IMG/VR virus record: IMGVR_UViG_3300021387_000118
Location: 77,168 to 141,167 of that record
From: a virus
Reading direction: 5' to 3' (one strand)
Length of the DNA: 64,000 nt
Part shown: one piece after another, positions 1 to 30,061 of the stretch
Layout: each line of letters opens with the position of its first letter
Numbering within the stretch: the first letter of the stretch is position 1
Made by a program: the position numbers and the translations under genes
Notes under the pieces: generated by a model
Database searches by the model: none
Told to the model about the DNA's origin: nothing
The model's input: the letters and a program-made list of their open reading frames with translations, nothing else

Positions 1-3000
1 ATTCTAAGACCGGCTGCATCACTCGCAGCACCATTCTTATCCCCATATATTTCGCCCAATGCATATTTTGATTCGGTCACTTCAATCGCTAATTTTTTTA
101 CACTATCAGTTGCATTATTAATGTAACTCGAAACTTCTTCTATATTACCGAATTTTATCATAGATATAATTTGCAACGCTTTTGCAATTTCCTGTGCCTA
201 ATCAAATGAATAACCATATTTGACCGAATTTTCTCTTTGCGATGTAACATATTGATTAATTGCATCTATCTCATTTTGTTTAAGCCCATTTTTCCATTCT
301 CCAGCAGAAGATTTCTATAAAACTGTATTAAACGAATCTTGAATAGACTACTTAGCTTTATCAACAGCATCTGGTATATTAATCCCAAAAGCTTCACAAA
401 TATTTGAAATAATATTCATTAAATGGGACGAATCAATATTTTCAGAAAATAACGCTTTAATCTTGGTTGAAGCATCTTCTATTTTTTCATCGTAATCAAA
501 ACCATCTTCTTCAAATGCTGGAATAATTTGCTAATTAACTCCCTTCCCGAGATTTATTAAGTCAGATTGCATTTTTTGCAATTTTTCCAATAAACCAACA
601 GGACTACTTGTCCCGTAAGTCTTCTATAATGCATCAGCATAATTATTAGCCTTTTCACCACTTAACGAACTGAATTCTTCCATTCTCTATTTCAGCGTAA
701 TAATCTGTTGTAAACGATTAATCACATCTTCTGATAAAATCGGACTTTCACTAGAAGCATTATCTAAATTATTAGCAGAAGAAGAAAGCCGAGTCCATCC
801 TTTTTCTGCTTCATCAAAGGTATACCCAAGCTCCTTTGCTTTAACATTTAAACGTTCAATCGCTTCTTCAAATGGCATACCCTATGTTGTTATAGCAGCT
901 TCCAAGTCTTCAACAGTTGATTTTAACTCTTCTGGGGCAGTAGCAGCACGTAAATCAAAACTAGAACTCACTTCGGCCAAAGATTCTTTTGCTTTCTGAG
1001 CAGCATTTGGGATTTCTACTCCAAATATTTTCAAAACATCCTATAATACATTTGTAGAAATTTCTTTTCCGAAAACATCTTGCCCCCATTTGCTTAGATC
1101 ATAATCATCAGGAATATATGGAATTAAATCTTGCATATAATCTCTTTGATCTCTGTCAACCCCATTGTTTTTAGCATAATTAATTACCATATTTCTCAAT
1201 AATTCATACCGTTCTTTTAATGCTGCATTTGATTTTTCGAGCTACTGCTATTCTTCTTCGTATAATTTGTTGTTATCCAATACAGATTGTGAATCCGTAA
1301 TAACCTCTTGCGCATATGCCTTAAAATCCTTTGTTAATTTTTGCACAACGACATCAAGAGTTTCTAAATACTATGGATCAAGTCCACTATCAAGAGAAAA
1401 TTGTTTTTCTCCATCATTATATTGTGTAACAAGTTCATGATAATTTTGAGCATAAGCTTTAAAATTGTCAATTAATCTTTCTTGATCTGTGCTAGTATAT
1501 TGGATACCTTTATAGTACCCATTATTATTTTTAATTGCAGATGTTATTTTCTTATAAAGATTATAGATTTCCATCATCTTTGTACGAGTATTTTCAATAT
1601 TTTCTTCTGTTGCATGTACGCTATCATATTCTGACAAATCAATTCCTTCAACACTATCACGTACTTGATCTATGTATTGACCACCATACTATTGTGAATA
1701 TTTTGCTGGCTATATCTTTCCATATATTTCTTCCAATTCTTTAACAGCCGATATTAATTCTTCTGTTGATGTAATCGCTTGCTGTGTCCCATCTGATATT
1801 TCTTGACTCATCTACACAGCAGCCTAGCTTGCCTTTTCTTCTGATTCAGCAACTTCATTTACTTTCTCAGAAATAGCTGTGTTCTCCTAAACAGAACTAT
1901 CAACATCCTATTCAAGATGATATGGTTTACTGTTTATATGCTTTTTTATATAATCAAATTCAAGATTAGGATCATACTCAAAGTAATCCTACATATTAAG
2001 ACCTCTTTGTTTCATCACTTCGTTCATTCGATTAAAAGATTCAACAACAGAGTTCGCCATCTCACTATACTTCTTCTAAATAGTATCAGCAATTTCATTG
2101 TAAACACCAACCGCATCAGAAGAATAATTAATCCCATCATCAGTAAATAAATTTTCATTTACATATTTGATTTTGTCAAACAGATCCTATGCTTCTTGTT
2201 CAGTAAGATGATACATATCTTTTAATTCGTCTTTTGTTTTATCCGCATCAAATACGTTCAACATAGATTCATGATCTGTTGCACGAAAAGCGTTCTCTAT
2301 TTTATCTAAATTACTTTCAAAATCATTTATTGATTTGTACAATTCATTATATTGTAACGAAGCTTCTTTGATTTTTTTTGGATCTATACTTTGAAGCATT
2401 TCATCAAAGTTATCAGCGTTTGCTATAATTTCACTGCCATCTCGAAGAACAATTTTTAACGATTGATATTCCTCCTTAAATTCGCTAATTTTTTCTTCAA
2501 GTTCTTCGAGTTTTAATCCTAGTCTTTGAGCCTTATCTTCATACTTGCTAGATTCGTCCTCATCATCAGAATACTGTGCGGCTTCCTCAGCTTCATCAAA
2601 CTCAGCTTCAACTTGTTTATACTATTGTACCGCCTTAACCAATTCTTTTACTTTTTGTAATTTTTCTTTTGGATCTAAAAAAGTATCGTCAATCCAATTT
2701 GCGTTTTGTACTTCTGATAATTCTTTCCATTCACTAGTTAGTTCATCAAAAACAAAACCAAGTTCTTTAGCTCTAGATATTAAATTTTCTAATAAATCCT
2801 CTCTAGGAGAAGTATCAGTAATAATCTAATCAAATATATTACTAAAGGCATTATCATTATCCATTTCTTTTGGTATCTTATCAAACATTGAAATAAATTT
2901 TTTAGTAAATTCCTCTTTGGATATTCCTGAATCGTTAACCTCATCATTGATTTCTTTTACTGCCTATTTTAATTCTTTAGCCGCTTCAGTACCCTTTTCA

Positions 3001-5126
3001 AAAGGTGTTGTATATGAATTTTCGCCAAACTCGTCCCTTAAAAAATCATCAAAATAATCAGGTGCCATATCCTAAGATTTTATTTTTGCATCAGGATTAA
3101 TTTTGCGAATACCTTCTTTTAATATACTTTCAAAATCAAAATTATTTGTTTCTATAAGATAATCTACCAATTCTGCTCCAGCTCTTTCCGTAGATGCGAC
3201 AGATTCTTTTATTGTATTAATTAATCCACTCCACACGTCTCCTGGAGAACCGTCAGCATTAAGTTGTGTACCAATCGCGTTATTCATTTCTTGAATAACA
3301 GAAGATAAATCTTCTCCACCTTTTTTTGACATTATATTAAAACCAAGCATTCGAGAAGCATCTTTATAATCATCTCCAGATTCAGATTTATAATCCGGCA
3401 AGTATTTTATTTTCTTTCCCTTCAAAAATGACCTGATCTATAATGCAACATTGCCATCTTTAGGGTTTGCTTCATTGATAATATTAGCGTCTGTCGCAAT
3501 TAAATCTCTAAGGACTCCAATATTACTAAGTTCTCCGGTTTTTTCTGCATCTTTCATTATTCCTTCAATTTCTTCTCGTAATTGTTTGATAGTATTTTTT
3601 GTTAGATTAAACTGTTCTCCGATTTCTTTGGCTATATCAGTAGCAATATTAGAAAATTTATTACTAGAAAATGTATCCTGGATTTCCTTTATCACATCAG
3701 TTACTTCAACGCCTTCTTTTTCGAGTTGATCAAAGTATTGTTGATATCCTCCTAAAAACCCATCTAAATCTTTTTTATTATTTTTTTTACCTGTAAACCC
3801 GCCATTTTCTAGCAGCCAACTTCTCAATTCGTTGCGTTTATTATTTAGCTATTCTATTTTCTATAGTTTTTCTTTTCTATCTAATAAAGATTTTTCAAAT
3901 TCTGAATATAGAGCATCAATATCTGTTGTATCGTCTTTCAGCTTCTCTTTATATTCATCTAACCAGTCTCTCTAGCCATACTTTTCAAAATCTTCATGAG
4001 ACATAACTCTGTTAATAAAATCATCTGTTCTTTTTTGTATTTTTGCTTGTGCATCTGACTGGGCTTTTTCCATATTAGATATCATTTCATTATACGCAGA
4101 CTAAACCTACGAATCTAACATAGAGATCATGCTATCTATATTTCCCAACAACTAATTATTACTCTAAACTTTCTCGCCAAAAGTTTTGTCAAGTTGTGAT
4201 ACTCCAAGATCAGACATTTCATCTTTAAGTTCTTGCATTTTTTGTTTCGTTGCTTCAAGACCTTTTAATTGATTATCATAATATTCTTTATCCTAACCTA
4301 CGTCTACTCCTTCTCCAAGTTTTGTACCAACATCTCTTAGTAGTTGTGCAGCTTCCGATTTTACTTTTTCTAATCTATTATATATTTCTTCGTTTCTTTT
4401 TGCCAGTTGTTCTAATTCTTTGCCAGAAGCAATATCTGCTGCCACATCTGCCTCTTTTAATTCTTGTCGCTTTTTAGAACGAACTTTTTTTTCTGCAATC
4501 CCATATCTTTTTTCTACTTCTTCATTTGCTTCTGAATATGCACTCCAGTTTGGATTATTTATTTGTTTTTTTAAATATTTTCCCGTATCAACATTTTTTA
4601 CAATGTTTTCACTATCAATATAATCAAATATATCTTTAAATGCAGATTGAATTTCAAACTAAAATTTTTCGGCATATTTACTATACTAAATATAGTTTTT
4701 AACATAATCTTCCGCCTGTTTATCAGTAAGTAAACCGCCTCCAAGCGTTTTATCAGCGGCGGTCTATAATTTAGTATATAAACGTTCAATAATTTTATTC
4801 ATTCCATCTTCAAAATGAACATCATCTGGAGTAATTGTTATCTAACGTTTTTTTGAATTCATTGCTTTCTATATTGATTTATCAACTTCCTAAACATTTG
4901 ATTTGACTGGAATATCAATACCTTTCTTAGCTTCTTTCTGAAGATTTTCAATCTTTTTTTTTGATTTATCTATCTATGAATCGTCTATATTGACAGTTCC
5001 ATTTACTTCAATATCTCCACCTAATCTTGAATTAACATCATTCATAGCATTTTGAATAGCTTTCATTAGATCCTAATCTCCAGCATATCTATTACCGCCG
5101 CTTCCACTAAACTTTTTATCTGCCAT
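1..5126 (-). CDS. tail tape measure protein (5' complete, continues past window start); single frame with many in-frame TAG codons
   Basis: ORF fragments 687..878, 1371..1637, 2187..2399, 3072..3425, 3438..3827 and the ATG at 5126 all share one frame (coordinate = 0 mod 3). Junction 3425/3438 is a single TAG. Coiled-coil-rich with a 'GFNIMS...AIGTQL' region. SD AGGAGGTG lies 7 nt upstream of the ATG. Confidence 0.6.
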
Positions 5127-5226
5127 TTATTTCACCTCCTATTCATAAATTTTTTAGCGCCACAAGAAACGCATCTTCAAAAGGTTTTCTTAACATTTTT
5201 TTTTCTTCTATATATTCCTATGTTTT

Positions 5227-5742
5227 CTAATCTATATATCCATCTGGATCAGCAGCAACTAATTCTTCAAGGGGAGATGGACCTCTTGCAGCAGGGCTTT
5301 TCCAATATGTTAATTGCGGAAATGGCGTTCTCCACCATGGAGTCCCAGGCTCTGGATGTTCTGGACCATTAATGGCACCACCATGCCATCCTTTTTCAAA
5401 AGAATTAATGTATATATACTCAGCTCCAGCTTCATAACTGCCAGTCATAAATTCCGGGCCAACCTCGATTTTCCATTCATCATCATTTGCAGTAACTTTA
5501 AATGCTGAAAGCAGTCCCTCTTGTCTGCTATAAATAAAAGGACTATATGAATCATAAAATGCGGTTACCGCATTTTCTCCCATTAATTCCAAATCAAATT
5601 TTACCCTTCTATTATATTTGGCGTTTAATTTTTTGGGTATAATGTCAATAGCCGTTAAAAGATTTGATCCAGCATTAAAAAAATTCTATAACTTTACCGG
5701 GTCAACTCTTGGAATTTTTGCTTTAAATTTTTTTGTAACCAT
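5227..5742 (-). CDS. late hypothetical protein (172 codons, one in-frame TAG)
   Basis: ORF 5227..5592 extends in frame through a TAG to the ATG at 5742, with GAGGTGG as SD. Confidence 0.45.
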
Positions 5743-5825
5743 AAAAATAACCACCTCATTATAAAATCATAATAACTTACTATCAAACAAAATCATTTAT
5801 CCATAAATGCAAAAATGAGCATTAT

Positions 5826-5874
5826 AAAAATGGTAAAAAATGGGGTTGCTATACCTCGCGATACAGTAACCCCG
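5826..5874 (-). terminator. rho-independent terminator, conserved ACCCCATTTTTTACCATTTTT motif
   Basis: On the minus strand a GGGGTT..AACCCC hairpin is followed by a T-run. A second copy of the same motif lies at 12377..12438. Confidence 0.5.
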
Positions 5875-5879
5875 TAACA

Positions 5880-6440
5880 TTATTTAATTTCATTTAGAAT
5901 ATCTTGAATTTTCCCAAAATCCAAGTGTTCTAAAACAGGTGTGAGAACCACACCTATTAATTTTCCAAATCTCTCAACTTGACTAGATATGAATGCATGA
6001 TTTTCATATTCATTTGTCATAACATCATCACAAGCCAATTGAAGAATAGTATGAAATTCACTTAGTTCTCTTTGATCTATATTCTTAACAAGCAAATCAA
6101 AAATGCCGGAAGAGTTAAGTGTATTAAAATCATCTAGCATATTGCCCTTTGCCTTGGATCTTTCAATATCAGTAAATAAATCAATTAGAGTTATACAAGT
6201 CAGCATATATTTTGCCACAGAATCGACATGCAAAACACGCTGTTCTGTATCATTTACAATTTCTTTTTTATAATAACAACTATTAACTATTCTTAAAGCA
6301 GCATCTAATTTTTTCTCATATGGAATATATTCGTCAATAATATGTTCCATCAAAAACGCCGCTTTATCTTCAATACTTTTTTTATTTTTAAACACTGTCA
6401 TAAAAGCTGTTAATTTCATTATTGGTCTCCTTTTATTCAT
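5880..6440 (-). CDS. hypothetical protein
   Basis: 186-aa intact ORF. The terminator lies directly downstream. Confidence 0.5.
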   Translation of the reverse strand: MNKRRPIMKLTAFMTVFKNKKSIEDKAAFLMEHIIDEYIPYEKKLDAALRIVNSCYYKKEIVNDTEQRVLHVDSVAKYMLTCITLIDLFTDIERSKAKGNMLDDFNTLNSSGIFDLLVKNIDQRELSEFHTILQLACDDVMTNEYENHAFISSQVERFGKLIGVVLTPVLEHLDFGKIQDILNEIK

Positions 6441-6529
6441 AAAAAATAGGGTGACCGAGAATATACAGTCACCCTAATTATATAAACAAATTGAAGACGA
6501 TTATCTTGTTTTAATAAATTAAATTATAT

Positions 6530-6961
6530 TTAGTTTTCGATTTCAGTAATAAGTCGTTGAATAGCGTCTTTATCTTTCTGATCAGATGCTTCCATCATTA
6601 AATTATGAAGTTTATTTACCATATGAGCCTTGCTGTCATCATAACTATATCCACGACTTCTCCTTGAATAATTTCCATTACTCATAGAACGGTTACTTCT
6701 ATAGCTATTCCCACCATCTCCATAGTAAACAGGCATTCTTCTCTAAGAATAGCCACCATTACGACCATAACCGTTTGCATAGGAATATTCATCTTCTTGA
6801 ACATCAATACCTTCTTCGAACATCTCAACTGAACCGATATCCTTAAGAATATCAACAAGTTCGCCAAGAACTTTTACAGTATTCATATCAAGCTTTCCCT
6901 ATCGAGAAATTTCATCAATTTCACAATAGACCATATCCTTAATATTATCAAATTCCATCAT
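6530..6961 (-). CDS. late hypothetical protein (144 codons, in-frame TAG)
   Basis: ATG ATG at 6961 with AAGGAGGTG as SD. Same frame as ORF 6530..6736 through a TAG. Confidence 0.45.
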
Positions 6962-7126
6962 ATCAATTACACCTCCTTATCAACGACTCATAACAAGATC
7001 AGGGCGAGTAATTATAATATTCGCATTCTGAACTAAAATAGGCTGATCACTAGTATTGCGAACAGCGATTGTTTCACAACAACCTCTCCATATTTGAGCA
7101 TTAGTAGCCCTAGAAACATTAAAAAA

Positions 7127-7447
7127 CTATTCTACTGCCGCAGGAGTGGCAATCATAGTGGAAGAGGGAATGGTAGAGCCGTCAATTTGAATAGCAACCG
7201 ATATTTCTCCAGGTGTTCCACCTGTCGGAACTGCAATGTTTGCTCCAAAATCAACTAAATAATTAGCAGAGTTATTTCTGCAACAACAGCAACCACCAGT
7301 ATAAGGAACATAACCGCTTAATAAAAAATTCCCCGTGTCATCACGGTGTCTTACGAATCCTCGTCTACATGGCACCGGAGTTTCAGTAAAAATAATCGTT
7401 TCTCCAGGTGCTACAGTTTGGACGGCATTAGAAGAATATTCTGCCAT
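7127..7447 (-). CDS. Cys/Gly-rich structural protein (possible fiber tip)
   Basis: ATG at 7447 with GGAGGTG as SD. Contains a CCCC motif and a 'TGGTPGE' segment. Confidence 0.45.
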   Translation of the reverse strand: MAEYSSNAVQTVAPGETIIFTETPVPCRRGFVRHRDDTGNFLLSGYVPYTGGCCCCRNNSANYLVDFGANIAVPTGGTPGEISVAIQIDGSTIPSSTMIATPAAVE

Positions 7448-7465
7448 TAGTAACACCTCCAATCA

Positions 7466-8224
7466 ATTACCACATCCACATCCATATCCATAGTTCTAAG
7501 CACAACAGTTAGGGTTCTATACCACATAGGCCGGAATTGGTGACGGATTTAAGTATTGTTCTAAAGCTGCGGTTTGTGCCGCCTAACCAGCAAGAATAGC
7601 AGCTGTCTGAGCATCCTGGGAACCACGAAGATTTGCAAGATTCAGCTGAGTTTGAAGGTTGGCGTTCTAAGTCTTAAGTGCGTCTATTTCCTGCTAACAG
7701 AGTTTGTCTTGGATCGATTGAATTCCACCATTTATTGTATTAAGCAGTGCCTGAGTATTAGCGGTGTTTGCCGCCATAATATCACGAACACCATCATTTA
7801 CCGCCTGACGATCTGCACATGCTTCTTGGGCGATAGTAGCACCAAGATTTGCTGTTGCCAATCTGTTTTCGCAACAACAACTCTATTGAGCCATCGCAAT
7901 AGTATTCATCTGATTCGTGAGATTAGCAAGGGTATTAGCTCTGCTTATTTCAGCGTTGGCAAAACCATTAGAAACAGCATTTGTAATTCCATTAATCCCA
8001 GCAATAACCGCAGCCTGATCAAAGCCAGACTATACGTCAGCCTACGTGGCATAAGCTGGAGCATAACCATTACCGCCAAAACCATTATTATTACCCCATC
8101 CATTATTTGCGAAAATCAGCAGAATGAGTAACCACCAGGCACCATTTCCTCCAAAATCGTTATTATTGTTATTACCTAATACCGCAGCAAGATCTGCCGC
8201 ACTTAAATTCTCTCCAGACATCAT
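7466..8224 (-). CDS. Gly/Asn-rich tail fiber-like protein (approximate extent, TAG read-through assumed)
   Basis: ORF 8042..8242 (GNNNNNDFGGNG, GWGNNNGFGGNG) ends at a TAG. The antisense plus-strand ORF 7574..8131 is a compositional artifact. Confidence 0.3.
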
Positions 8225-8619
8225 AGCTAGATCTCCTTTCATAAAAAAACTATACTATAAAATTTCAAAAAAAGATCCTTTTAGTCCTACCAATAAAACA
8301 AGATAATTATTCTTCAATTTATTCACTTAGTTACATTATTTGCCAAATTTCTCATTGGCTTCCTGTTGTGCCATATTAATCTCGTTAGACCTACCATTAT
8401 TAATTAAATACTAACCAATCAATACTGGATTGTTTTTATATGGCTACAACTCATTATATTGCTATTGGTTAATTTTCTAATTTTGTAATAAAATGTCCAA
8501 AATTAATCCGGGGTTTTTATTAACCATAGCAAGCTAATTAAAAATATTTGGTTTGTTAGTCTAATAATTATAAGAATTACTAGACTATCTGTTCAACATA
8601 TTAAATAAAGGGATTGGCA

Positions 8620-8976
8620 TTATTTATTCCCCCTTCTGTTATTTGAATTAGTAGAAGATTGCGGTTTGCCGAAACTTGTAATTCGATTTTCGATTTCCTC
8701 AATCTGACCACTCAACTCATTTATATGAGAACTAAGATCATCAAATTGATCTTTAGTTACAAATTTATTTGACTTACCAAGCTTATCAGTAATAGAAGAG
8801 AACTGTTTGCTTAACTCATCCATCTGCTCCTTGGTAGCATATTCTATTTGCTGAGTTTGATTTTTATTATCCTCAGCATTTCTATCAACATAATCTAGAA
8901 TAGTAAGCGATGGCTTACCTGATGCATCTACTGATTTAATATAGATACACGGGTTTTCACTATCAAAAAATGCCAT
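8620..8976 (-). CDS. coiled-coil hypothetical protein
   Basis: 118-aa intact ORF. Confidence 0.45.
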   Translation of the reverse strand: MAFFDSENPCIYIKSVDASGKPSLTILDYVDRNAEDNKNQTQQIEYATKEQMDELSKQFSSITDKLGKSNKFVTKDQFDDLSSHINELSGQIEEIENRITSFGKPQSSTNSNNRRGNK

Positions 8977-9239
8977 ATTGCAACCGTTCTAAACCTAAGC
9001 TGCTTTAGCACCTTCTAGTCCCTATACCCAATTAATATTAGTATTATTTATTGGCTATGAAACCTATTGATACTGTGGTACAGCAGAAGTTTGCTACGGT
9101 TGTTGATATGGCTAATTCCAATTCCTACTTTGATAAACAGGAAGCCCTGTTTGTTGATAATAATTTTGCTGAGGCTAATACGATGGGTAAACAAAACCGT
9201 TATAATTATCCATTATCATCCATCTCCTTTACATAATAA

Positions 9240-9607
9240 TATGTTACTATCTCATCCCGACTGTCCCATGAATCATAAACGGATCCATCACACACAGCAC
9301 AAACATGAGTCCCAGTTGCTACAATATACTATCCATTCGGATAATCATTACAAAAATTATTTAGAGTATAACAGTCAGGACATGTATCAGGAAGATTTTT
9401 TCGTACAAACCCATTCTATTTTAAATAATATCCCCATACATAATTAGAAGATGGCATATCACACAAATGAAAACCAGTAAGTGCAACTTCCGTATATATA
9501 GTTTCCCAACTCTTATTTAATGTCTTACATAATGCTCGTATGACACAATCTCCGACAAATTTCCCCGCCGGATTTGGATTATAAAATACATATCCCATTT
9601 TAATCAC
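9240..9607 (-). CDS. late hypothetical protein (approximate, TAG read-through)
   Basis: ORF 9416..9607 continues in frame past a TAG into a Cys-rich segment. Confidence 0.3.
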
Positions 9608-9846
9608 CCTTTTCCTTTGGCAATTTCATATATTTAATCTGTAGTTTAATGATTAAAGAATTAAGCTGTCTAGCCCATCCAATTCCATAATCATCAATCA
9701 ATGCAGATGATAAGTAATCCTAAAAATTATCAAGAAATTCATCTTCTTCATCTGTTGTATCAATAGAAGATGATAACATTTTTTCTTGCAATTCATTATA
9801 TCTATCCATACATCTGCGAGTATTTTCAAAAAAATCTTTCATTCTT

Positions 9847-12089: not shown

Positions 12090-12091
12090 TA

Positions 12092-18655: not shown

Positions 18656-18661
18656 TCCCTG

Positions 18662-19502: not shown

Positions 19503-19948
19503 TCAATCACCTTCCTTTATTTTCATAATTTCAGATCCAGCATCTAATATCAGTTTTCTATAATTAGACCAGTTAAAACATTCGCTATTATACTCAATTA
19601 GTGCAGCCTATAATAAACTCATTGTTTCCACAAGTTCTGGCGGCTCAAGTAAAATACTGTTTAGACCGTTAAGCCTATTTTGTAAATCACGGAATGCTTC
19701 CGCGACATTAATATCTGGATAGTTAGATTTTGTATTTCTATCTACATATAGTAATAAGAAAAAAATAGACTTTCTTAAAGAAGCCTTAGTTTGATGGATT
19801 TGTTTAGAAGAATAAGAACCGTAGAGTGTTTTCATGAAGTTTCCACCCCGTTTATAACACTAAGAGAGTACGCACGATCTCTAATAAGTTTTCGAAGATC
19901 AGTTTGGGACTTAGTATATAAATCTTTCATTTCAGCTAAGTGTTGAGC

Positions 19949-20299
19949 CTAGCTAAAAAACTTTTGTTCGCTATTTGACAATAGTTGACTTGTCAAAAGC
20001 GTAGAGTGGTAACGTGGAGATGCCCATTCACTTACCATTCCCAATCCCAAAACTTCCTCTACAAAATCCTTATCAGAATCTTCATCTAAAGCGTCTCTTA
20101 ATTCATATTCAACTTCTTCCATATCATCATCCATCACTACAGATAAAAACAGTCTACGTACCATTGGTTTAGATAACGTAGACCGCAGATATCCATTCAG
20201 CACTTCTTTTACCAATTTTTCACTTAATCCAGACATTTCATAATCTTTAACTCGTAAATAAAACCGAGAATAGATTTCATCGTATTCCGAGGCTGCCAT
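19949..20299 (-). CDS. hypothetical protein
   Basis: 116-aa ORF. Confidence 0.35.
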   Translation of the reverse strand: MAASEYDEIYSRFYLRVKDYEMSGLSEKLVKEVLNGYLRSTLSKPMVRRLFLSVVMDDDMEEVEYELRDALDEDSDKDFVEEVLGLGMVSEWASPRYHSTLLTSQLLSNSEQKFFS

Positions 20300-20465
20300 A
20301 ATTCAACCCCCTTTAATCAGCGATAACACTTCTAAAATCTGTCCCATAAACATCATCGATGATTTTAATTTTCTTCAGAGAATCAAATGTGCCATCTTCA
20401 ATCTTTTCTGCAACATGAACCTGTAAAGACTTAGCAAGTCCTTTTGGGAGTTGTTCAAGAGCAGA

Positions 20466-20885
20466 CTAGAAAACATTAACCGGAAGATTAAGAATTTCAT
20501 CCAAATCTTTTACAGAGTAAACCTCTTCCTCATAGAACTTAGCCACATCAGCCCAGCGAGGATTTTCCAGCAGTTCCTCATCTTCAATGATAAAATGAGG
20601 GGCATAAATATAATTGGATCTTCTACTCTTTAAAGCAAATAGGTCTTGATATTCAATTTCACATTCATCTCCGAAATTTTCAAAAACATAATACTGCCCA
20701 GATTTACCAGCACAACCAAGCCATCCAGTAGTTACAGAACGACAAAGAATAAGATCATTTTGATTAAACTGTCTAGGCTCTTTCTTTTTCGGTTCCTTAA
20801 CAGTTGGTTCTTCGGCAACATTTGTAACCTTCTCAGTTGTTTCTGGCACAGTTTTAGCTATTTTTCTTTTTGCAGTTGTAGCCAT
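20466..20885 (-). CDS. head-module hypothetical protein (ends in TAG, probably longer)
   Basis: 139-aa ORF directly downstream of the MCP gene. Confidence 0.35.
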   Translation of the reverse strand: MATTAKRKIAKTVPETTEKVTNVAEEPTVKEPKKKEPRQFNQNDLILCRSVTTGWLGCAGKSGQYYVFENFGDECEIEYQDLFALKSRRSNYIYAPHFIIEDEELLENPRWADVAKFYEEEVYSVKDLDEILNLPVNVF

Positions 20886-20911
20886 ATCCTTTTAGTCCTT
20901 TCAAATAATTA

Positions 20912-22030
20912 TTACTGAGTGATAACCCAGGTACCAAAATATCTGCCAATAAGCGTAGAAACACCAAGCTTAGTAAGATACTTAACCTCATAGGTCATAT
21001 CCTGGTTAACGGTATTATCAGTAACTTCTTTGATCATAGCATCTCCCTCATAAACGAGTTTGACAAATCTGTTATCAGCAACAGGCATGATCAGAAGGAA
21101 GTCAAGATTATTCTGACCATACTTAACAAGCTTCGTAGTAGTATCATTCTTTGCAAATACTTGCGGAATCTCTACAACACGAGTTCCTTCAAATACGCCA
21201 ACATGACCAAGGTTTCTATGGTCGGTTCTGTCTTCCTTAGCAATCCAATTTACATCAGCCAGATTCTTCAGCTTGGAAAGAGCAGACTTCGTTCCCATAA
21301 TAACAACTTCAGTGCCACGGTTTGCAGCCTGAACATCCTCTACCATAGTTACAAAAGTATCATGAGCAGCAGCATCAAGAGCAGCAGTCTTATAGAACTG
21401 ATTAGAGCCAGGAAGAACCTTCTGACCAGCTTCCATAACGGCCTTGAATACAACCTCATCAACATACTTATCCATTGCTTCATAGATCGCATTTACAAGA
21501 CGAGTCCAGTCAGCACGACCAGTCATAACACGCTCAAATTCCTCGTACACTCCAAGACCAACCCAATATGTCGGAACACGGAAAGTCTCGCCAATTCCAA
21601 GGCGCTGTCTGTCAATATCCCAGTGATCGCCACTGAGCTTACCGACCGTCAGAACTGTTTCGTCTGCCGTCTCAAATTCGTTGGTATCACCAAGAGCAAG
21701 ATTCTTAACTTCTACAAAGTCGCGGAAGAACTCATTATCAGTCCAACCAGAAGTAAGCATATTATCAACTGTATCCTCGATAACCTCGAAGATCTCATTT
21801 TTATGACGATTGATTGCTCTACGAATTTCCTTCTTAGAAGCAGTCTCATCAATACCCATAATCAGGCGGAATTTCTCCTTGATCATAGCGTCAGCATCAG
21901 CCTTGGTAATACCAGACTGGAAAACTCCTCTGTTGTAATCAGCAAGAAGCTGAGAGAAGTTCATATAGGTAGACTCATCATTATCAAATGCGGCCTAAGT
22001 AGTAGCAGCAAAATTCATAAATTTACTCAT
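20912..22030 (-). CDS. major capsid protein (HK97-like), one in-frame TAG
   Basis: 373 codons in frame. ATG at 22030 with AAAGGAGGG as SD. TAG at codon 12. Capsid-like composition. Confidence 0.7.
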
Positions 22031-22048
22031 ATCATTTCCCTCCTTTCA

Positions 22049-22579
22049 TTAACCATTCTTGCGTACAAAAATCTTATAGAATTTTCCATTAGTACGAGTA
22101 ATTACATCAACAATTTCACCATAGAAAGCAACGGAAGCAGCTGGCTTTGCAGCCTATGCTTTCAGATCATAACCATCAGCAACAATATACTGACCCTTTG
22201 CAAGAGGAGTACTTGTGCCAATAGCGGTAATACCATTTTCAGATACAGTGAACTTGTCACCAACAAGAAGATCATAAACTCTCATGATCTCATCTTTGCC
22301 ATTGTAGAAATTGTGTTCATATGTAGCCGCCTTGGGTCTTTCATCAGGACCAATCGGTACACTTAAAATAAGACCAACTCTAGAAGTAGAAGTTGGCTGA
22401 ACCATCGTGAAATATTCGTTGTCAACCCAAGCCATATCATCAAGGTTAACAAGTTTGCCGTTGTCGATATCAGCGCCAGCACGCACGTTAAATATATGCT
22501 TTGCATCATATGTAGCCTAGAGATTGGTACTCTCAGCCACAACATGCTTATTAACAGCCTGTAAAAATGCATTAATCAT
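22049..22579 (-). CDS. head auxiliary/decoration-like protein (177 codons, two TAG)
   Basis: ATG at 22579 and TAA at 22049 in one frame through two TAGs. Confidence 0.45.
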
Positions 22580-22627
22580 AGCTATTCATTTCTCCTTTCC
22601 TTAATAAATAAATATTATTGTTTAATA

Positions 22628-24478
22628 TTATTTCTTTTTAAAATTTTTAAAAAGTCCACCATAAGGAGACTTTTCTTCTTCATTATTATTGCCAGTTGTC
22701 ATAAACACCATACCGCGTTTCTTCTCGTGTTTACCAGAGAAAGTACTGTAGTTGGATTTCATAAACTTGGCATAAACAAGATCAGCTTTATTAGTGAGAT
22801 CCTCAACGGAATACTCATCCATATGATCTTTGAGTTCCTTGAACTCTTCAAAATCTGCCATTACGGAATAATCCTCCGCAGTAAGAACTGCTTCACGAGC
22901 GGAATGGAGTTCTTTGGCTTTATAAGAATTAAGTTCGGTTTCGATAGAAGAGTAGTCTGACTTCATCTTATCAAGTTTTGCAATCTCGTCCGCCGTTAAA
23001 TACTGAGCATATACTTGAACTCTGTCGCCTTTAAGAGAGTACACATCTTTCTTCACAGAGTATTCTTGGCGATAATGTCTATCACCCCAGAAATCATGCA
23101 TCACGCAATAGCGACCATCATCCTCAAAAACATCGCAATAATACCAAGTATTATCAGACTCCGAATATGTATCATTAACGAGAGTTGTTACGGCATTAAT
23201 CTTATCTGCAAGAGATACTGCAAAATCTTTCTTGACTCCGTCAATAGTAACAGAATAATTAAGACTATTCTCAACTCTTGTACCAGTAGAATCTTCATCC
23301 TCAATAGCAGAAACAGTCTGATGTTCTTCTTCGTCTTCAGACTCATCATCAGCAATATCACCAGCGGTAGAACCGTTGTTAGCAGAACTATCACCTGTGT
23401 TATCATCAGCCGGATCTTCATCAGCAAAATCATCAACCACTTCAGGAGTTTCTGCGGTTTCTTCAGTCACTTCCTTTTCAGAAGCTTCCGTTTCAACTAC
23501 GGGATTTTCCTCTTCTGCAGAACTTTCATTTTCCTTGGAAGAAGAATCTTCGGAGTCATTGGCAGTTTCAAACGCATTAGCAAAAGCAGTTTCAAGTTCC
23601 TCATCACTCATGTTAGAATAATCAAAAGTAACATCATCAACTGTTTTATTATACTTCGCCAGAAGTTCATTAAACTTGTCCATTTCTTTCGGTTTACCTC
23701 CTTCCTTAGAATTTTCGGCAAAAGCCTCTATATAATCAAGCTTCGACATTATCTCAGCAATGATTTCTTCTTTTAACTGTGCTTTATTAATAATAGAATT
23801 ATTATCAGCACTAAAATCTTCAATTTGCAAATATGCGCCTTGCATCCCTTCTTGGACTTCTTCGCCAGTATCTGGATCGGTTCCAAGTAAAGTCACGCCC
23901 ATTACATCAACATCTTCTAAAAGAAGACCATCTTCAACTGAGTAACTCATCTCATTGATGCATAATTCGGCGGAAACTTTTGTTCCACCTTTTCTTTCAA
24001 TAATTTCAGCAGCATCAGTATATTCTCTGGGAATTGCAATCTTTGCATAAATATACTAACGATCTTCATGATCTGGATCTTGTTTCATATATGGTTTGTC
24101 AGAGGTGAAACATCCAACTTGTTTCTCAATATATGTCCTAGATCCATCTTCATTAAATTCTATGGCATGATAAGTAAAATCTCTTTCGCCATTCACCTCA
24201 GTAAAATCAGCGAGAACAGGCTTGTAAGCAATCTTAGAAAGACAACTCTTTGCGCCCTTCTCAGTGAGATTAGATTTGTTACGATTACGACCCGTATGCA
24301 TCAGTTTAATATTTCCATAAAATGTTAATGGATCTTCGTCATCAGTGGCTTCAAAATTTTCGCAAGGTATTTGCACATGAATACTATACCCAGAAGTCTT
24401 AGAATTAAACTATGTAAAATTCTAATCTTGACAGAATCTAACAAGATCGTCAATAGTTAATATTTTTGACCTACGCAT
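22628..24478 (-). CDS. scaffold-like acidic protein (617 codons, at least 4 in-frame TAG)
   Basis: ATG at 24478 with AGGAGGTG as SD. ORFs 24056..24376 and 22628..23950 share its frame. Long D/E-rich segment. Confidence 0.5.
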
Positions 24479-24505
24479 ATTTCACCTCCTTATTAATTAC
24501 ATATT

Positions 24506-24688
24506 TTAAAACGTCAAGACATCAGTATAATTCATCTTCATATCTTGAGATGAAAACTGAATTTTATTTGGTTCATTTATAAAAACATATTTGTTGCCAG
24601 ATTTTGGCAGTTCTTGAAAACCAGCATGGCGCAAAATTTCTGCGGTAACTGGATCAGTTGTATTAATAAATTGATTTTTTTGTTTCAT
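24506..24688 (-). CDS. small hypothetical protein
   Basis: 60-aa ORF. Confidence 0.3.
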   Translation of the reverse strand: MKQKNQFINTTDPVTAEILRHAGFQELPKSGNKYVFINEPNKIQFSSQDMKMNYTDVLTF

Positions 24689-24706
24689 ATATATATCACC
24701 TACTTG

Positions 24707-25162
24707 TTAATTCTTTCTTTTGCTAAATGTATCTGTCTGTGAATGACAATTTGGACAAAGAAACCTCAAATTTTCAATCCTGTTATCATTATGAACACCA
24801 TTTATATGATCTAACTATAATGATAGCGGACGATCATTCCACATACCAACATTGCCACAAATGGCACATTTATATTCCAATAAATCATTATTGATAATTC
24901 TAATCTTTAATCTTGATAAATTTTGATATGTAGAATTTTCAACTAATATCTCATCTAATGAATATTTTGTATTGTTTGGATTAAAGCTACCAGAGAAGTG
25001 ACTTGTCGAAATGTTTAATTCCTAACACCTTTTTTTGATTAAGTCGTAAGGATATCTGCCATTCTTCGTATAACCCAATTTTAAGACACATTGCAAATAC
25101 GAAGTAGAATTACTGATTAATTCTTTAAATTCATCATCTGATAATTTATATACTTTATTCAT
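24707..25162 (-). CDS. HNH homing endonuclease (two in-frame TAG)
   Basis: LDHINGVHNDNRIENLRFLCPNCH motif. GGAGGTAAAAGC SD ahead of the ATG. TAA at 24707, in frame. Confidence 0.7.
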
Positions 25163-25268
25163 GCTTTTACCTCCTATAGTAAAATATCCTAGAATTTAAA
25201 TGTGAGAGGAGAGGTCTAGGATCACCTCTCATACATGGTTAATTACTCCATGTATTTCTCACATTTGA

Positions 25269-25555
25269 CAGCCCATCTCCGATTCGAACGGAGGTTACCT
25301 CCTTCAGAGGGATATCACGGTTTTCTTACTACATTATGTTTCCATAACAGCATCTGCTTTGTAGTCTGGATCATCTCTTCAACTCAGAGAGTTGGGAACT
25401 ATATGATCTCTGCGCATTTAAATTAGCTCAGGATTGCCATATGAATAAAATCACTTAGGGTTTTCCTGAATTAGGTTCCTTTACATTTATGTTTCACAAC
25501 ATAACGCTCCACAAATAATGAGAGACCGGTGCACTAGCCGCTGTGCTAATGGGCT
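25269..25555 (-). tRNA. intron-split amber suppressor tRNA (anticodon CUA after splicing); exons 25555..25521 and 25324..25269
   Basis: 5' exon reads AGCCCAT-UA-GCAC/AGCGGCUA/GUGC-A-CCGGU-CUCU. 3' exon reads AAA-ACCGU, a 23-nt variable arm, CUCCG-UUCGAAU-CGGAG and AUGGGCU-G. Acceptor is 7/7 complementary, with a canonical D-arm and T-arm. Splicing gives the anticodon loop CUCUAAA. Confidence 0.6.
25325..25520 (-). ncRNA. group I intron (R3, 196 nt) inside the tRNA anticodon loop
   Basis: P1 pairs exon CUCU with IGS GGAG (25510..25507), giving the U.G pair at the splice site. R element CAGAGAUCAUAU (plus 25401..25412). S element AGAUGAUCCAG (plus 25366..25376). Terminal G at 25325. Confidence 0.6.
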
Positions 25556-25565
25556 ATAAGAAAAA

Positions 25566-25588
25566 AGAGCAGGATAATATCCTGCTCT
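25566..25588 (-). terminator. hairpin terminator after the portal gene
   Basis: 9-bp stem AGAGCAGGA/UCCUGCUCU followed by a U-run on the minus strand. Confidence 0.5.
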
Positions 25589-25594
25589 TAAAAA

Positions 25595-27226
25595 TCATTT
25601 ATCATCAACTATATTTCTAGTCCTTTCTGCACTGCCAGATATCTCATCGTCACTAACGCGATTTCTTCCGGCAGTAGAATCATCATTGCCAGTAGATTTA
25701 CGAGTAGCAGTGGTATCCCCCCATGCAGTATTATAACTAGATAATAATGGCACCATTATATCCTTAATTCCAATAGCATTTTCAAAAATAATCTAGCAAT
25801 ATGCCTCATATGGTGTATATCCTTGCGCTTCCAAATAAACCAAAGCACTAGATCCAAGCGTTGCGGCCTATCTAGTTGCCTCTATAAAAGTATCTTCATT
25901 GTACCATGTTTGTCTCAGTATACTAAATAAATAATTCTCACTGATATTCTTATCTATATAATATTGAAAATTATTCTCTAAACGCTCTACAAGAAGATAA
26001 GCATAAGCGCTGTCATTATTTAATGAATGTTTAATTCCAGCTGCGGAATTTGCATCAGCAGAAGAAACAACTGGTTCACTAACACCAATAGTCTTATATA
26101 AGTTTCTAATACTATTATTTACTATGTCAGTAGTGTCAGCTGTAGAATTCTAGTTAAATGAGACAGTCTCCAAAGACAGTCCTGGTAAAAGTCCAACTCC
26201 TACCAAATCAGGTACTATTGACTGCACCGCATCTTTATAAACAGATGCAATCTCTTCTGATACTTTAAAGTCATCTACTACATCACCATCTATAAGCGGA
26301 ATTCCAAGAAGAAGCAGCTTATAATTGTCCAATTCCGTCTTGTCCGCAAGGAGCTAGGAGTAGTCAATTATATCCAATAAATCAATAAAACTAGAACTTA
26401 AAAACGGTAAAGGATTTTCAAATTCATCGTCCAAAGAAGAGAGGAGAGTAATAGTATATTCACTCGGTATTATAAACCATCTAGTTTCTTGTTTATTCGA
26501 AGAATTCTGATATTCTCTCCATGCGTCCTAAAAACATTGATGCCAACATCCAGACGTATCTCCATTAATACCTTCCACAAATATTACATTTTGACCAATA
26601 CTAAAATATGTAAGATCAAACGCAACGATCCATTGTCCAGCTTCGTTCTTACCTCTTATCTTGCAATACTCCATTGGTAGCATATGCAAGAACATACCGT
26701 CTTCGCCATTATCATAGACAAACCCATAATAAACTCCATCTCTAATCGCAATAGCCATAGCCACTGCAAACTCTGTTTTGAAATTAAATTTATTTATATG
26801 TTTTAATACATTTTCATACTCCTTGATAATCTTATTAGTATTTGGACTCTTTGCAAATTCCATTTTCTGAACTAAATTATAGTTGTATAATGGCATTGTT
26901 GCATAATATAAAATAACCTTTTTATATAACGTTGACATACGCCATAAGAATCTCGAAACACCAACTATTTGATTTCTATAAGAGTATGGATTCGTCAAAT
27001 ATTGCTTGATTAACGATTTCGTATATTGAGTGAAACTCTGAGTACGATTTCTTGCAACATCCTGTAAAATCAATTCCTTTAATTTTTCGGTTTTTTTAAA
27101 ATCAAGGGCCGTAGGTCTACTGACAACCTCTTGCTCATCATTTTTCTTTTTTGGTAGTAAAGACTATGTCATAACTTTACTACGCTCATCAATCAGCGCC
27201 TCTTGCGCTTTAGGTTTTCTAGGCAT
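25595..27226 (-). CDS. portal protein (544 codons, several in-frame TAG), TGA stop
   Basis: ATG at 27226 with AAGGAGG as SD. ORFs 26528..27073 and 26150..26332 share its frame. TGA stop at 25595..25597. Sits between terminase and head genes. Confidence 0.6.
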
Positions 27227-27245
27227 GAAGCGCCTCCTTTCTTTA

Positions 27246-29003
27246 TCAACAATTATAAGTAGTAGAACGGCGAGGTGGAGTTATAGAAATATATTTAAAT
27301 AACTAATTTGTTGATTGCTTTGGTCTTAATTTTAATTCTAACTAACACATACACCAATAATTATAAGCAATAGAAGAATAGCGGTCTTTTCGCATACCAG
27401 ACTATTCTTTAACTTTAATATTACCGTTCTTAACTTCGTGATCTAATTTAATTAATTCATATTCTGCCATAGTGGTTTGTAAATATGGCATTTTTATATA
27501 AGCTCGATCTGTTGGAGAAAGCTTAGAATAAGGCTTATAAGATTTTGAAATCTCTTCTTCGCATTCCTAATCTGAAATAAGAAAACTGATTCTTCCATTT
27601 TGTATCCCGTTTCTTAGTAAAACACATATTTCATTATTAAAATTGGCACCCGCTTTAACGGACCAGACCACTTTATTGGCATCTTTAACCTTACAGCGAA
27701 TCGCCATATCATCATCATTAATACATGTTAATGCCTTATAGGTTTTGCCAGTTGAAGAATCGTATTGATCTTTACAAATATAGTCAAAGATTCCAATTCC
27801 CAAACCTCCTGTATCAACTACTAAATCGGTACATTTATATTCATAAAAATAGCGCATAACAATAATTCCAAGTTCATCTGTTGTCAACCCTTCAAAAGTC
27901 TCTCCATAAACAAAATTTGAATGATAACTTGTATCATCCTATTGGATTGCGCTATTAATATACAAGGCAGCAGCATCGTTTTTCTTTTTCTTTGTTGAAC
28001 CCATAAGAGCAACGTCAACAGAAAGAATTCTTTTTTCTGTTGCAGAAACATCAGGAATTCGAATTTTATCATTATAGAATTTTAATGGTAGTAAAGCATT
28101 TTTGATTTTTCTCTATTTATTTATCTCTTCCCACTTAAAGAGATTATCACCATCATCTCCGACCCACATGCATTCCATTTCCATAGTAAAAGCGAGTTCA
28201 TTAAAGTCCGCCTCTGATTTTTCATCCATTACTTGCTCCCTAGATAAGAGTCCTTCCTTAATACTCAATTGATACGGCAATCCACAACAAAAATATCTTT
28301 TAGAATCATCAAAGAAATTAGCCACATATGCTTGTAGTTTTTTCCATGCCCACGAACTTTTAAAATACGCACTAGACATATATATTTCCTTATTTCGTTC
28401 TTGAAGATGTGAATATTCTGGTTTATTTAAATAACCAGGTTGTCTGGGGCTAGTTAAAAACTTCCTAATAACAAGATTCAAAATAGTTTCATCAACCATG
28501 CGGAATTCATCAACAACAATTATATTTGCCCTAGCGCCACGAGCATTATCGGTACTAGTCCTCGTTGTAATCCAAGATCCATTTTTAAACATGATGATCG
28601 CATCGTTCTATCCTATATTACATTTCTCAATTTCGGTACATAATATAGGTGACATTTTCATTAGTTCATCCTATATTTTTAAAAGCACACCATTAGCCTG
28701 TTTAAGAGTTCCAGAACAAACAACAATCTTACTCCCAGGATATAAAATACATCTTACAACACAGAAGAGCGCAGTAAGCCATGATTTTGACATACCACGA
28801 GCAGCAATGAACATAAAATAATTATAATGCATCATTGCCCATATTAATATTTTCTAAAATAATTTTAAATGTATTCCAAGTACTTCTTCCACAAATCTTT
28901 CTGGATTTGCTCTATAATAAGCTGCTCGAAAAGCAACCGTATTCATTATTTTCTATTCCTTATCCTGAGCAATTTCGCGAATAGTTTTTTTTCTTTCTTT
29001 CAT
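27246..29003 (-). CDS. terL: terminase large subunit (586 codons, at least 6 in-frame TAG), TGA stop
   Basis: Walker-B-like IIVVDEF and nuclease-like VVDTGGLGIGIFDY. ATG at 29003 overlaps the upstream TAA. Fragments 28113..28592 and 27567..27887 are in the same frame. Confidence 0.65.
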
Positions 29004-30061
29004 TATAATTCATCGACCTCAGATCCGAATATTTGATCAAACAAAGTTTCAGAATCCGTATCTTCATCATATTGCGGTTTATCAACTGTATATTTTTTGA
29101 TAAACCTTTCATATGTATGAGAAAATGCATTTTTTAACCCCATCATTCGAGACATATGACCTTTAAAAAATACATCAAGATATAAGCCTATCTTATTAAC
29201 TGAACGAAATTCTTCGTCAGGCTCAGGAATAGGTTTCTCATTTTCCCATTTTTGTATCAGTTGCCCAAACGTTTTTGCTTCCGTAAGTGCATTTGAATTA
29301 TTTTGATTTGGTTTTAAAGACATGCTGCCCATAAGATCCTAAAGTGTTTTATCTAATTCTTTCGTATCTTTTCCGGTTCTTTGAGCCTTATCAATCTCTA
29401 ATTCTTTAAAACAAATTCGTTTAAACAATATTTCTTGCGCCTTATTCTCACAGGCATAACGTTTAATCCAGTCTTGATACTCAGATTCTAAAAATAATAA
29501 ATCTGAATTACTATATCCATCACCAAAACGTTTTTTTGCTTGTTTAAGCGTTCTGGAGTTTTCATTTATTTCTTCTTCATCCTTATCTAAATAATCAGCC
29601 GGAAGTTCTGAATCCTTCCAAGTTTTCCCACGCCAATTTGGAAGCGATTTTATAACCGTTATATAATGCTAATAAGCAGTACTTCTATGTTTATCCTATA
29701 TATCTGCACCGCAAGAAGTGAGAGCAGATTGATACATGGAATCAATGTACGGAAGATCCATCATCTTTAACACATCCATTGTTTTTTCACGATTATCCGT
29801 ATACTGATTTGTTTTCTTATCATAATCACAAGCCATCCCAATCAAACATTTTTTGCATATAGGAAATAATCCGCTTGAGTAGTTCTTATCACTATAAAAA
29901 GCATCAACATTATGGAATTCATTACATTTATGACAAAAGTATAAATTACCATCTAATATTCTATTATAATCTTTGGCGAGATTGTTATAGGCTTGCCTAA
30001 TCTATGCAACGCCAGTTTTACGAACCTCGTCTTCTGTCAAAGCTGGTTTCAGCCTAATCAT
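29003..30061 (-). CDS. late Zn-finger protein (353 codons, 4 in-frame TAG); small-terminase candidate by position
   Basis: ATG at 30061 with GGAGATGAGATA as SD. Continuous frame to the TAA at 29003 through 4 TAGs. CHKCNEFH..CKKC motif. Confidence 0.4.

Follow-up and report, generated by a model that had tools for sequence, protein, structure and literature searches.

Late-biased recoding of TAG from stop to glutamine (Gln), with suppressor transfer RNAs (tRNAs) encoded by the phage, is known from crAss-like phages, Lak phages and several Firmicutes-infecting clades (bioRxiv 10.1101/2021.08.26.457843; PMC7886860), and proteomics has confirmed TAG as Gln in crAss-like phages (Peters et al., PMC9523058). 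A suppressor tRNA has been detected in only about 40% of TAG-recoded phages, and undetectable non-canonical tRNAs have been suggested for the rest (Borges et al.; Yutin et al.). The gut-virome phage phAss-1, of the proposed Phassvirus (~136 kb), has predicted Clostridia hosts (Babkin et al. 2023, PMC10607447). Theta ribozymes, which are hepatitis delta virus (HDV)-like, adjoin the suppressor tRNAs of recoded gut phages in a paper that has no mention of introns (PMC10879173). The "enigmatic" tRNA introns of Lak phages lie in Tyr and Thr tRNAs and, as far as the text shows, not in a suppressor (PMC6784885), and a 2014 review placed all phage group I introns then known in protein-coding genes (PMC3984707). 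Here, we analysed 64,000 nucleotides (nt) of the IMG/VR virus record IMGVR_UViG_3300021387_000118 (below, the window; all positions are those of the whole stretch), and describe its TAG usage, the Gln meaning of TAG, the partition of its gene set, a split suppressor tRNA(CUA) gene, the group I features of the intervening sequence and the polymorphism of that intron. The window is best explained as part of a large SPbeta-like siphovirus of Clostridia-type Firmicutes, from gut or rumen, that has two coding states; its genome is probably 110-200 kb. Very probably, TAG means Gln in the late genes of this SPbeta-like phage, and an intron-split CUA suppressor is the enabling switch. The phenomenon is a known one in a new lineage, and the part that is really new is the intron-split, long-armed suppressor tRNA within the recoded block. 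The window falls into three parts:

1..30079, minus strand: late (packaging, head, tail) module; TAG counts and stop usage show TAG to be a sense codon here.
30305..43519, minus strand: early/middle genes (ParB-like, HNH, PhoH, ClpP, YonJ-like phosphoesterase, GIY-YIG), without TAG and intact under code 11.
44566..63909, plus strand: about 45 small early genes without in-frame TAG; a TAG terminator is possible in at most four.

Open frames were re-derived with TAA and TGA as the sole stops, and starts were chosen by Shine-Dalgarno (SD)-like motifs. The 33 coding segments of the late module contain 123 in-frame TAG in 8,958 codons and no internal TAA or TGA. In the early/middle genes and the right half of the window, there was no in-frame TAG in 8,939 codons, and at most four small open reading frames could end in TAG. 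The border between the coding states falls between 30305 and 30061. Under code 11, the late genes look fragmented and the early genes intact. Relatives' loci and genomes are labelled L001, L002 and so on, and P0063 denotes the large terminase (TerL) protein from L002. The late genes that carry the argument are as follows:

1..5126, minus strand: tape-measure gene, cut by the window edge, in a frame stopped by TAA/TGA only; first TAG at codon 18.
9847..10287, minus strand: RusA-like gene, 1 TAG.
10504..13912, minus strand: island nearly free of TAG by count, comprising a tyrosine-recombinase-like gene (Pfam Phage_integrase and SAM-like), two unknown genes and an HNH/Zn-finger gene.
20912..22030, minus strand: major capsid protein (MCP), YonB-like, 372 amino acids, 1 TAG at codon 12; phrog_4088, E 4e-74.
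22049..22579, minus strand: decoration-like gene, 2 TAG.
22628..24478, minus strand: scaffold-like gene, 3 TAG.
24707..25162, minus strand: HNH endonuclease gene (Pfam HNH), 2 TAG, ~105 nt downstream of the suppressor tRNA.
25595..27226, minus strand: portal gene, 543 amino acids, 6 TAG; phrog_2739, E 4e-69, and tblastn matches to Firmicutes siphovirus portals.
27246..29003, minus strand: TerL gene, YonF-like, 585 amino acids, 10 TAG, among them those at residues 50 and 554; Pfam and PHROG terminase matches and full-length homologues.
29003..30061, minus strand: YonG-like Zn-finger late gene, 352 amino acids, 4 TAG, the first recoded gene of the module; phrog_3314.

TAG interrupts 27 of the 33 late segments. 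The initial annotation had taken TAG to be sense in the whole late module; this stands for those 27, and "whole" was slightly too strong, since six segments are free of TAG (5880..6419, 10504..11508, 11580..12089, 12529..12945, 12977..13912 and exon 2 of a tail-tube-like gene). The sole TAG of the island 10504..13912 sits in 12092..12355. The tape-measure gene had been described as a single frame of more than 1700 codons broken by TAG only, and we counted 1,708 codons, of which 41 are TAG and none is TAA or TGA; its two off-frames contain 79 and 230 TAA/TGA, and the chance of none in this frame is ~1e-53 from base composition. The junction at 3425/3438, read earlier as a single TAG, is indeed one in-frame TAG at 3440..3438. 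The earlier counts for the MCP (1), decoration-like (2), RusA-like (1), HNH (24707..25162; 2) and Zn-finger (4) genes were right, the "several" TAGs of the portal gene are 6 and the "at least 6" of TerL are 10; the scaffold-like gene, given "at least 4", has 3. The statement that late genes stop at TAA or TGA, neither of which is ever internal, holds in all 33 segments.

TAG accounts for 31% of the Gln-equivalent codons in the late genes. TAGs are evenly distributed along the genes with the same +4 context as CAA/CAG, and no special sequence context was found when we looked for one around TAG. The first TAG lies at codons 12-21 in the YonG-like, TerL, portal, scaffold-like, decoration-like, MCP and tape-measure genes, and most recoded TerL relatives have a TAG in the first 35 codons, at varying positions. 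Such N-terminal TAGs could be a "gate" against long truncated products; the enrichment, a post hoc observation in 12 of 26 genes, was not significant (P = 0.054). TAG is densest, reaching 7.4% of codons, in the genes of low-complexity late proteins in 6980..9213 (minus strand), where the product of 6980..8224 is Gly/Asn-rich with CCCC and CGCGC motifs and that of 8336..9213 is Gln/Asn/Pro-rich.

Homology searches with the read-through products showed that conservation continues past the TAGs in portal, MCP and TerL. The portal matched phrog_2739 over residues 52-515 and the MCP matched phrog_4088 over residues 30-370; Pfam was largely uninformative on late proteins, and PHROGs were needed. Database relatives of TerL number in the thousands; identity to the best 120 is 69-91%, nearly always over the full length. 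It also matched three partial "unknown function" families, phrog_15503 (residues 12-217), phrog_26582 (232-570) and phrog_24618 (360-554), which look like code-11 fragments of recoded terminases, an annotation artefact. The relatives L001, L004, L005, L006, L008, L028, L056, L067 and L068, which are independent assemblies, carry TerL genes with 5-15 TAGs, several of them in shared columns. Therefore, the TAGs are not assembly errors, an alternative that the initial annotation had raised and that the same TAG pattern in at least nine independent assemblies answers. Among 80 IMG/VR TerL loci, 10 were recoded (4-15 TAG in TerL) and 51 had no TAG in TerL. Some database TerL proteins are already translated with TAG as Q, and hence the checks were made on DNA: the TerL gene of L001 has 11 TAG, and that of L002 (P0063, 71% identical to the window TerL) has none. 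In L002, 4 of the 21 genes neighbouring TerL end in TAG, indicating that TAG is a stop there. Homology across TAGs, Gln at TAG columns in standard-code relatives and early genes intact under code 11 bear out the proposed likeness to the stop-codon recoding of gut phages. These results support recoding of the code-15 type in the late genes of a Firmicutes phage, a phenomenon already known; the suppressor tRNA, the introns and the TAG-free island go beyond the initial annotation.

The meaning of TAG was read by comparing TAG columns against standard-code relatives only, verified at the DNA level. In TerL, where 51-73 such relatives have Gln at TAG columns, 6 of the 10 window columns are overwhelmingly Gln, two of them at 50/51 and 49/51, and across the recoded clade the TAG columns of TerL are Gln at 52% against a background of 4.9%. 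Over 41 TAG sites in 15 late genes, Gln was enriched 8-fold and was the majority residue at 15 sites, and other residues reached at most 1.4-fold. The summed log-odds over these sites were +5 bits for Q and -114 or lower for every other residue, which puts Gln more than 100 bits ahead of the next residues, including Lys and Ser. All three invariant columns with at least 37 relatives are Gln (37/37, 73/73 and 70/70), the last being the TAG at residue 241 of the YonG-like protein. A further site, the TAG in exon 1 of the tail-tube-like gene, is Gln in 2 of 3 relatives. In recoded relatives, TAG and CAA/CAG interchange in the same columns. Judged by these alignments, TAG is glutamine in the late genes.

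Default ARAGORN and whole-window Rfam searches reported only tRNA-Asn and tRNA-Pro and no CUA tRNA. ARAGORN with introns allowed found a split tRNA at 25556..25267 (minus strand), and the suppressor tRNA(CUA) gene was placed at 25555..25269 (minus strand), between the portal gene and the HNH gene 24707..25162, inside the late block. Default tRNA finders miss this gene because a group I intron splits it and because its long arm is atypical. The elements of the locus and the two other tRNA genes are as follows:

25565..25589, minus strand: terminator-like hairpin at the 3' end of the portal gene; the suppressor tRNA starts 9 nt downstream; same arrangement in L087.
25521..25555, minus strand: 5' exon of the suppressor tRNA(CUA), ending ...GGUCUCU after anticodon position 35; from ARAGORN and homology to intronless suppressors.
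25325..25520, minus strand: group I intron of 196 nt in the suppressor anticodon loop; Rfam RF00028.
25269..25324, minus strand: 3' exon with A36, the long variable arm, the T arm, the acceptor 3' strand and G73; no CCA encoded.
30162..30234, minus strand: tRNA-Asn(GUU)-like gene at the early/late border; ARAGORN.
34740..34812, minus strand: tRNA-Pro(UGG); ARAGORN, Rfam 51 bits.

The exons are homologous to the intronless suppressor tRNAs at L005:6833-6924 and L087:10718-10811, and the recoded relatives L005, L008, L028 and L056 carry tRNA(CUA) genes of 89-92 nt. Joined in silico, 25555..25521 and 25324..25269 give 91 nt that ARAGORN calls as tRNA(cta) with a cloverleaf. The junction (...GGUCUCU, intron, AAAACC...), which falls between U35 and A36, is fixed by the intronless alleles. 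The key allele is that of L087, whose tRNA lacks the intron and occupies the same locus behind the same terminator of the portal gene; it scored 47.3 bits against the Rfam tRNA model. L005, L028 and L056 hold a suppressor at a second site, a tRNA cluster upstream of TerL; in the window, the stretch beside tRNA-Pro corresponds to the position of the L005 suppressor and contains none. ARAGORN with relaxed thresholds and the pattern CTCTAAA..TTCGA revealed no further CUA tRNA in the window, and none was found in the 10 kb beyond its right end. L084, a relative of 173 kb, has an array of 27 tRNAs; when its suppressor was compared pair by pair with its remaining tRNAs, no clear parent emerged, the best being Leu(UAA) at 69%, followed by class I tRNAs at ~65%.

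The intron of the window scored 43.3 bits against Rfam RF00028 (Intron_gpI; E 7e-10) in a search of 421 nt; the whole-window Rfam search at E<=1 had missed it. In the predicted P1 helix, exon CUCU pairs with GGAG 15 nt into the intron, with the exon-terminal U in a U.G pair, and the intron ends ...GUAAG with G as its last base. The suppressors of L089/L171, L172 and L004 are interrupted at the identical position by homologous introns of 173-231 nt, and the L089 intron reached 50.5 bits against RF00028. The U.G pair of P1 and the terminal G are kept in all four diverged copies, and an RNAalifold consensus of the four contains compensatory changes in 18 of 46 pairs, which, coming from four sequences, are supportive only of the predicted fold. 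Self-splicing of this intron in vivo is what we infer from these features. Among 14 metagenome loci with the same exon-2 25-mer, 12 are intronless and 2 have an intron at the identical site; thus, the intron is a presence/absence polymorphism, as expected of a mobile element. L004 is the closest relative, and its tRNA exons belong to another suppressor sequence family. When L004:13881-14198 was compared with window 25269..25555, the introns were clearly more conserved than the tRNA exons that they interrupt. The comparison suggests that the intron may have moved between suppressor genes via the shared anticodon stem-loop. The HNH gene 24707..25162 was considered as the homing enzyme of the intron and rejected, as its homologues do not track the intron and are absent beside the L004 copy; it is a lead only. 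A homologue of this HNH gene adjoins the tRNA array in L084 (229-672).

All ten suppressors of the clade have a helical variable arm of ~20 nt and a 4-bp D stem, and the long arm is kept across three suppressor families with differing arm sequences. The class I short variable loop expected of tRNA-Gln is absent from these suppressors, and a Gln-inserting tRNA with such an arm is unusual. Acceptor stems differ widely, and position 1:72 is weak or mismatched (A-U, U-A, U.U, A.C) wherever the acceptor end could be read. G73 is present in every suppressor copy, and the window tRNA has A1-U72 and U35 in its CUA anticodon. The identity elements of Escherichia coli glutaminyl-tRNA synthetase (GlnRS) are a weak 1:72 pair, G73 and U35. 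The suppressor elements fit these E. coli rules, from which the host enzyme may differ, and the suppressor is presumably charged with Gln by the host enzyme.

Taken together, these features suggest the following mechanism. The TAG-free early/middle genes and recombinase island would be translated by the unmodified host, in which release factor 1 (RF1) stops at UAG. The late genes would read TAG as Gln; without suppression their products would be truncated, most key ones within the first 12-21 codons, and late mRNAs would be unreadable until the CUA tRNA accumulates. The switch would be the phage CUA tRNA made from the late block, just after the portal gene, where the 196-nt group I intron must self-splice before an anticodon loop could exist. 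The mature 91-nt tRNA (A1-U72, G73, U35, extra helical arm) would then be charged with Gln by the host. Supply of the tRNA would probably depend on late-region transcription, on read-through or processing, and on splicing. The timing of the code switch is likewise something that we infer.

Several observations weigh against the proposal that a spliced, Gln-charged suppressor switches on the late genes of an SPbeta-like phage. Splicing, charging and Gln insertion are predicted from sequence, and at 43.3 bits the intron lies under the Rfam gathering score of 50. Long variable arms are typical of Ser, Leu and Tyr tRNAs and not of Gln, and the seryl- and leucyl-tRNA synthetases (SerRS and LeuRS) do not read the anticodon. 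On the suppressor strand, a search for sigma-70-like promoters gave none, and a terminator-like hairpin lies directly upstream of the tRNA. The visible part is 64 kb, and another, unsplit suppressor could sit elsewhere. No release-factor or aminoacyl-tRNA synthetase (aaRS) gene was found among the window proteins, and the host is predicted from metagenome-assembled genome (MAG) bins and relatives.

Three other explanations were weighed against this proposal. The class-II-like arm invites the reading of TAG as Ser, Leu or Tyr: all ten suppressors have the ~20-nt helical arm, which is the main SerRS identity element and a Leu/Tyr feature, and Ser is the majority residue at 3 of the 41 TAG sites, at one of them in 15/15. 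We consider this very unlikely, because Gln beats Ser and all other residues by more than 100 bits over the same sites, the invariant columns (37/37, 73/73, 70/70) are all Gln, TAG interchanges with CAA/CAG in recoded relatives, the 4-bp D stem is as in class I, and the weak 1:72 pair and G73 are conserved while acceptor stems vary. It is also conceivable that the split tRNA is a dead or selfishly invaded copy whose intron has no role, and that the working suppressor lies elsewhere or is a host factor. The genome exceeds 100 kb and 64 kb of it is visible, phAss-1 carries three suppressor genes, three relatives (L005, L028, L056) have a suppressor at the second site, and intron-bearing alleles are a minority. 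However, a canonical cloverleaf forms from the two exons, neither of which is damaged, and four diverged copies of the intron preserve its group I core, the P1 U.G pair and the terminal G. A second CUA tRNA was found neither in the window, even at relaxed thresholds, nor in the 10 kb past its right end, and there is no suppressor at the window's counterpart of the tRNA cluster. On balance we regard a dead or irrelevant copy as unlikely.

The fragmented look of the late genes under code 11 would also be expected if the TAGs were nonsense mutations of a decaying prophage, or sequencing or assembly errors. Only one of three stop codons is affected, however, and there are no frameshifts; the tape-measure frame would have a chance of ~1e-53, the pattern recurs in at least nine independent assemblies, and TerL is strongly conserved, at 70-91% identity. 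Frame statistics and conservation already refute decay or error, whose probability is negligible. Returning to the spliced Gln suppressor, a stronger form of the proposal is tentative and inclines us more to doubt than to belief: that the intron is part of a timer of the code switch, that the suppressor is an undescribed class-II-shaped Gln suppressor, and that intron-split genes explain part of the undetected suppressors. If it were true, self-splicing of the late-region transcript would set when and how sharply UAG turns from stop to Gln, and the extra arm would shield the suppressor from enzymes or nucleases of the host, or bring in a specific partner. Intron-split suppressors would also explain part of the ~60% of TAG-recoded phages without a detected suppressor tRNA.

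Other introns and homing-endonuclease-type genes were found in the window. The tail-tube-like gene is interrupted twice:

14083..15510, minus strand: tail-tube-like gene with exons 15510..15361, 15123..14539 and 14163..14083; from tblastn with unsplit homologues.
14164..14538, minus strand: group I intron in the tail-tube-like gene; Rfam RF00028, 53.4 bits, E 9e-11, over 14548..14214.

The unsplit homologues are in L036, L068 and L073, and the 3' boundary of the group I intron was placed by homology and frame. The other intervening sequence, at 15360..15124 (~237 nt), comes first in the gene, and an Rfam search of 15050..15450 gave no match for it. The 5' exons of this gene are followed by a stop codon immediately or one codon later. 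Homing-endonuclease-type genes are many, all on the minus strand: HNH/Zn-finger (12977..13912), phrog_4645 endonuclease (17714..18580) and HNH (24707..25162) genes in the late block, with 0, 2 and 2 TAGs, respectively, and HNH (38629..39378) and GIY-YIG (42767..43519) genes further on. Two homing-endonuclease-type genes adjoin intron-containing genes. In L084, ARAGORN reported a tRNA-Gln(UUG) at 954-1480 (minus strand) with a 450-nt insert that is protein-coding in look, and a second split tRNA at 6964-7510.

The lineage of the window phage was examined through its genes and relatives. TerL is 42% identical to SPbeta YonF, and among the named phages in INPHARED those of the SPbeta group are closest; at ~42% identity, the window belongs, by this comparison, to a related lineage outside the genus Spbetavirus. 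Syntenic genes of relatives match the SPbeta families YonG, YonJ, YonB and YomW, and homology and synteny of the SPbeta-type block, from YonG through YonF (TerL) and portal to YonB (MCP), are present. Specifically, the counterpart of 29003..30061 in relatives matches Pfam YonG_N and YonG_C, and the syntenic MCP gene of L001 matches Pfam YonB. By tblastn, the portal shares 22-28% identity with its counterparts in large Firmicutes siphoviruses. Coprobacillaceae and Thomasclavelia genomes contain prophage relatives, close relatives use TAG as a stop, and MAG bins with relatives are mostly Clostridia/Lachnospiraceae, obvious mis-binnings included. The record IMGVR_UViG_3300031867_000003 (202 kb) is the nearest relative, and identical contigs occur in rumen or gut runs such as SRR873601, ERZ12302816 and JGI 3300002641. 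SD-like sites lie upstream of most starts. The SD-using, Firmicutes-like context proposed in the initial annotation agrees with these sites, the YonF-like TerL, the Yon/Yom families and the Clostridia/Lachnospiraceae bins.

A rise in GC at 44-52 kb and a strand switch (~44 kb) had prompted the idea of a prophage adjoining host DNA. This was ruled out by small phage early genes in the right half (GP88, DUF5688) and by the contig, which continues beyond the window with phage genes similar to the early set of the window. In the tRNA-Asn(GUU) at 30162..30234, the T loop is atypical and the anticodon stem includes a G.A pair; the Rfam tRNA model did not report this gene at E<=1. ARAGORN also finds a tRNA-Asn(GUU) in L005 (7802-7874) and L087 (4791-4863), in both cases upstream of the late block, so its position is conserved. 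The tyrosine-recombinase-like gene 10504..11508 (minus strand), with Phage_integrase and SAM-like N domains and no TAG, lies between the tail-tube and tape-measure genes and hints at a temperate lifestyle; TAG-free integrases have been reported for recoded prophages (Borges et al., bioRxiv 10.1101/2021.08.26.457843), which it parallels. Opposite the MCP and decoration-like genes, a codon-aligned antisense frame at 20909..22366 (plus strand) runs for 486 codons with no stop of any kind. Because this frame is codon-aligned and stop-free, the stretch that it covers contains no TTA, CTA or TCA codons, which implies strong codon bias there in a 36% GC genome; the antisense frame is probably not a gene.

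The window offers a visible, concrete cause for a missed suppressor, namely a group I split combined with an atypical long arm, and annotating its clade calls for code 15 together with tRNA searches that allow introns. Natural alleles with and without a small intron at the same locus make the system tractable for studying how RNA processing controls the timing of a code switch, and it is also suited to asking how a class-II-shaped tRNA gains Gln identity. A full-text literature search, of incomplete coverage, turned up no report of a phage suppressor tRNA that contains a group I intron.

With the code-15 gut phages, the window shares TAG as Gln, a late/structural bias, TAG-free early genes and integrase, TAG rarely used as a stop, a phage-encoded CUA suppressor tRNA and low GC, and the late-gene bias and TAG-free integrase agree with the model of Borges et al. 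Unlike those phages, it belongs to an SPbeta-like lineage, its suppressor, encoded within the late block, is intron-split and long-armed, and genes for RF2 or an aaRS were not seen in its 64 kb. phAss-1, likened here by description only, shares TAG in TerL, portal and tape measure, TAG aligned with Gln, a tRNA-Sup-CTA and the lack of a dedicated aaRS; its three suppressor genes were detected directly by tRNAscan, with no intron reported. Theta ribozymes share the physical coupling of a ribozyme to the maturation of a code-switch tRNA; they lie beside the suppressor gene, whereas in the window the anticodon loop itself is interrupted by the ribozyme, a group I intron. Small group I introns without reading frames also occupy the anticodon loop in cyanobacterial tRNA-Leu(UAA), tRNA-fMet, Azoarcus tRNA-Ile and Patescibacteria tRNA-Asn/Asp (PMC13011429). 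Those introns and the ones of the window clade (173-231 nt) have in common a 5' site after U (the U.G pair of P1), a P1 formed partly by the anticodon stem-loop, a terminal G and a gene that standard tRNA finders miss; the difference is that the host gene in the window is a phage amber suppressor carrying a code switch. Finally, the window phage shares with SPbeta (SPBc2) a large genome, frequent group I introns and homing endonucleases, and a YonF-type TerL (42%), but unlike SPbeta, which uses the standard code, it is recoded, has a tyrosine-recombinase-like gene and is predicted to have a Clostridia-type host range.

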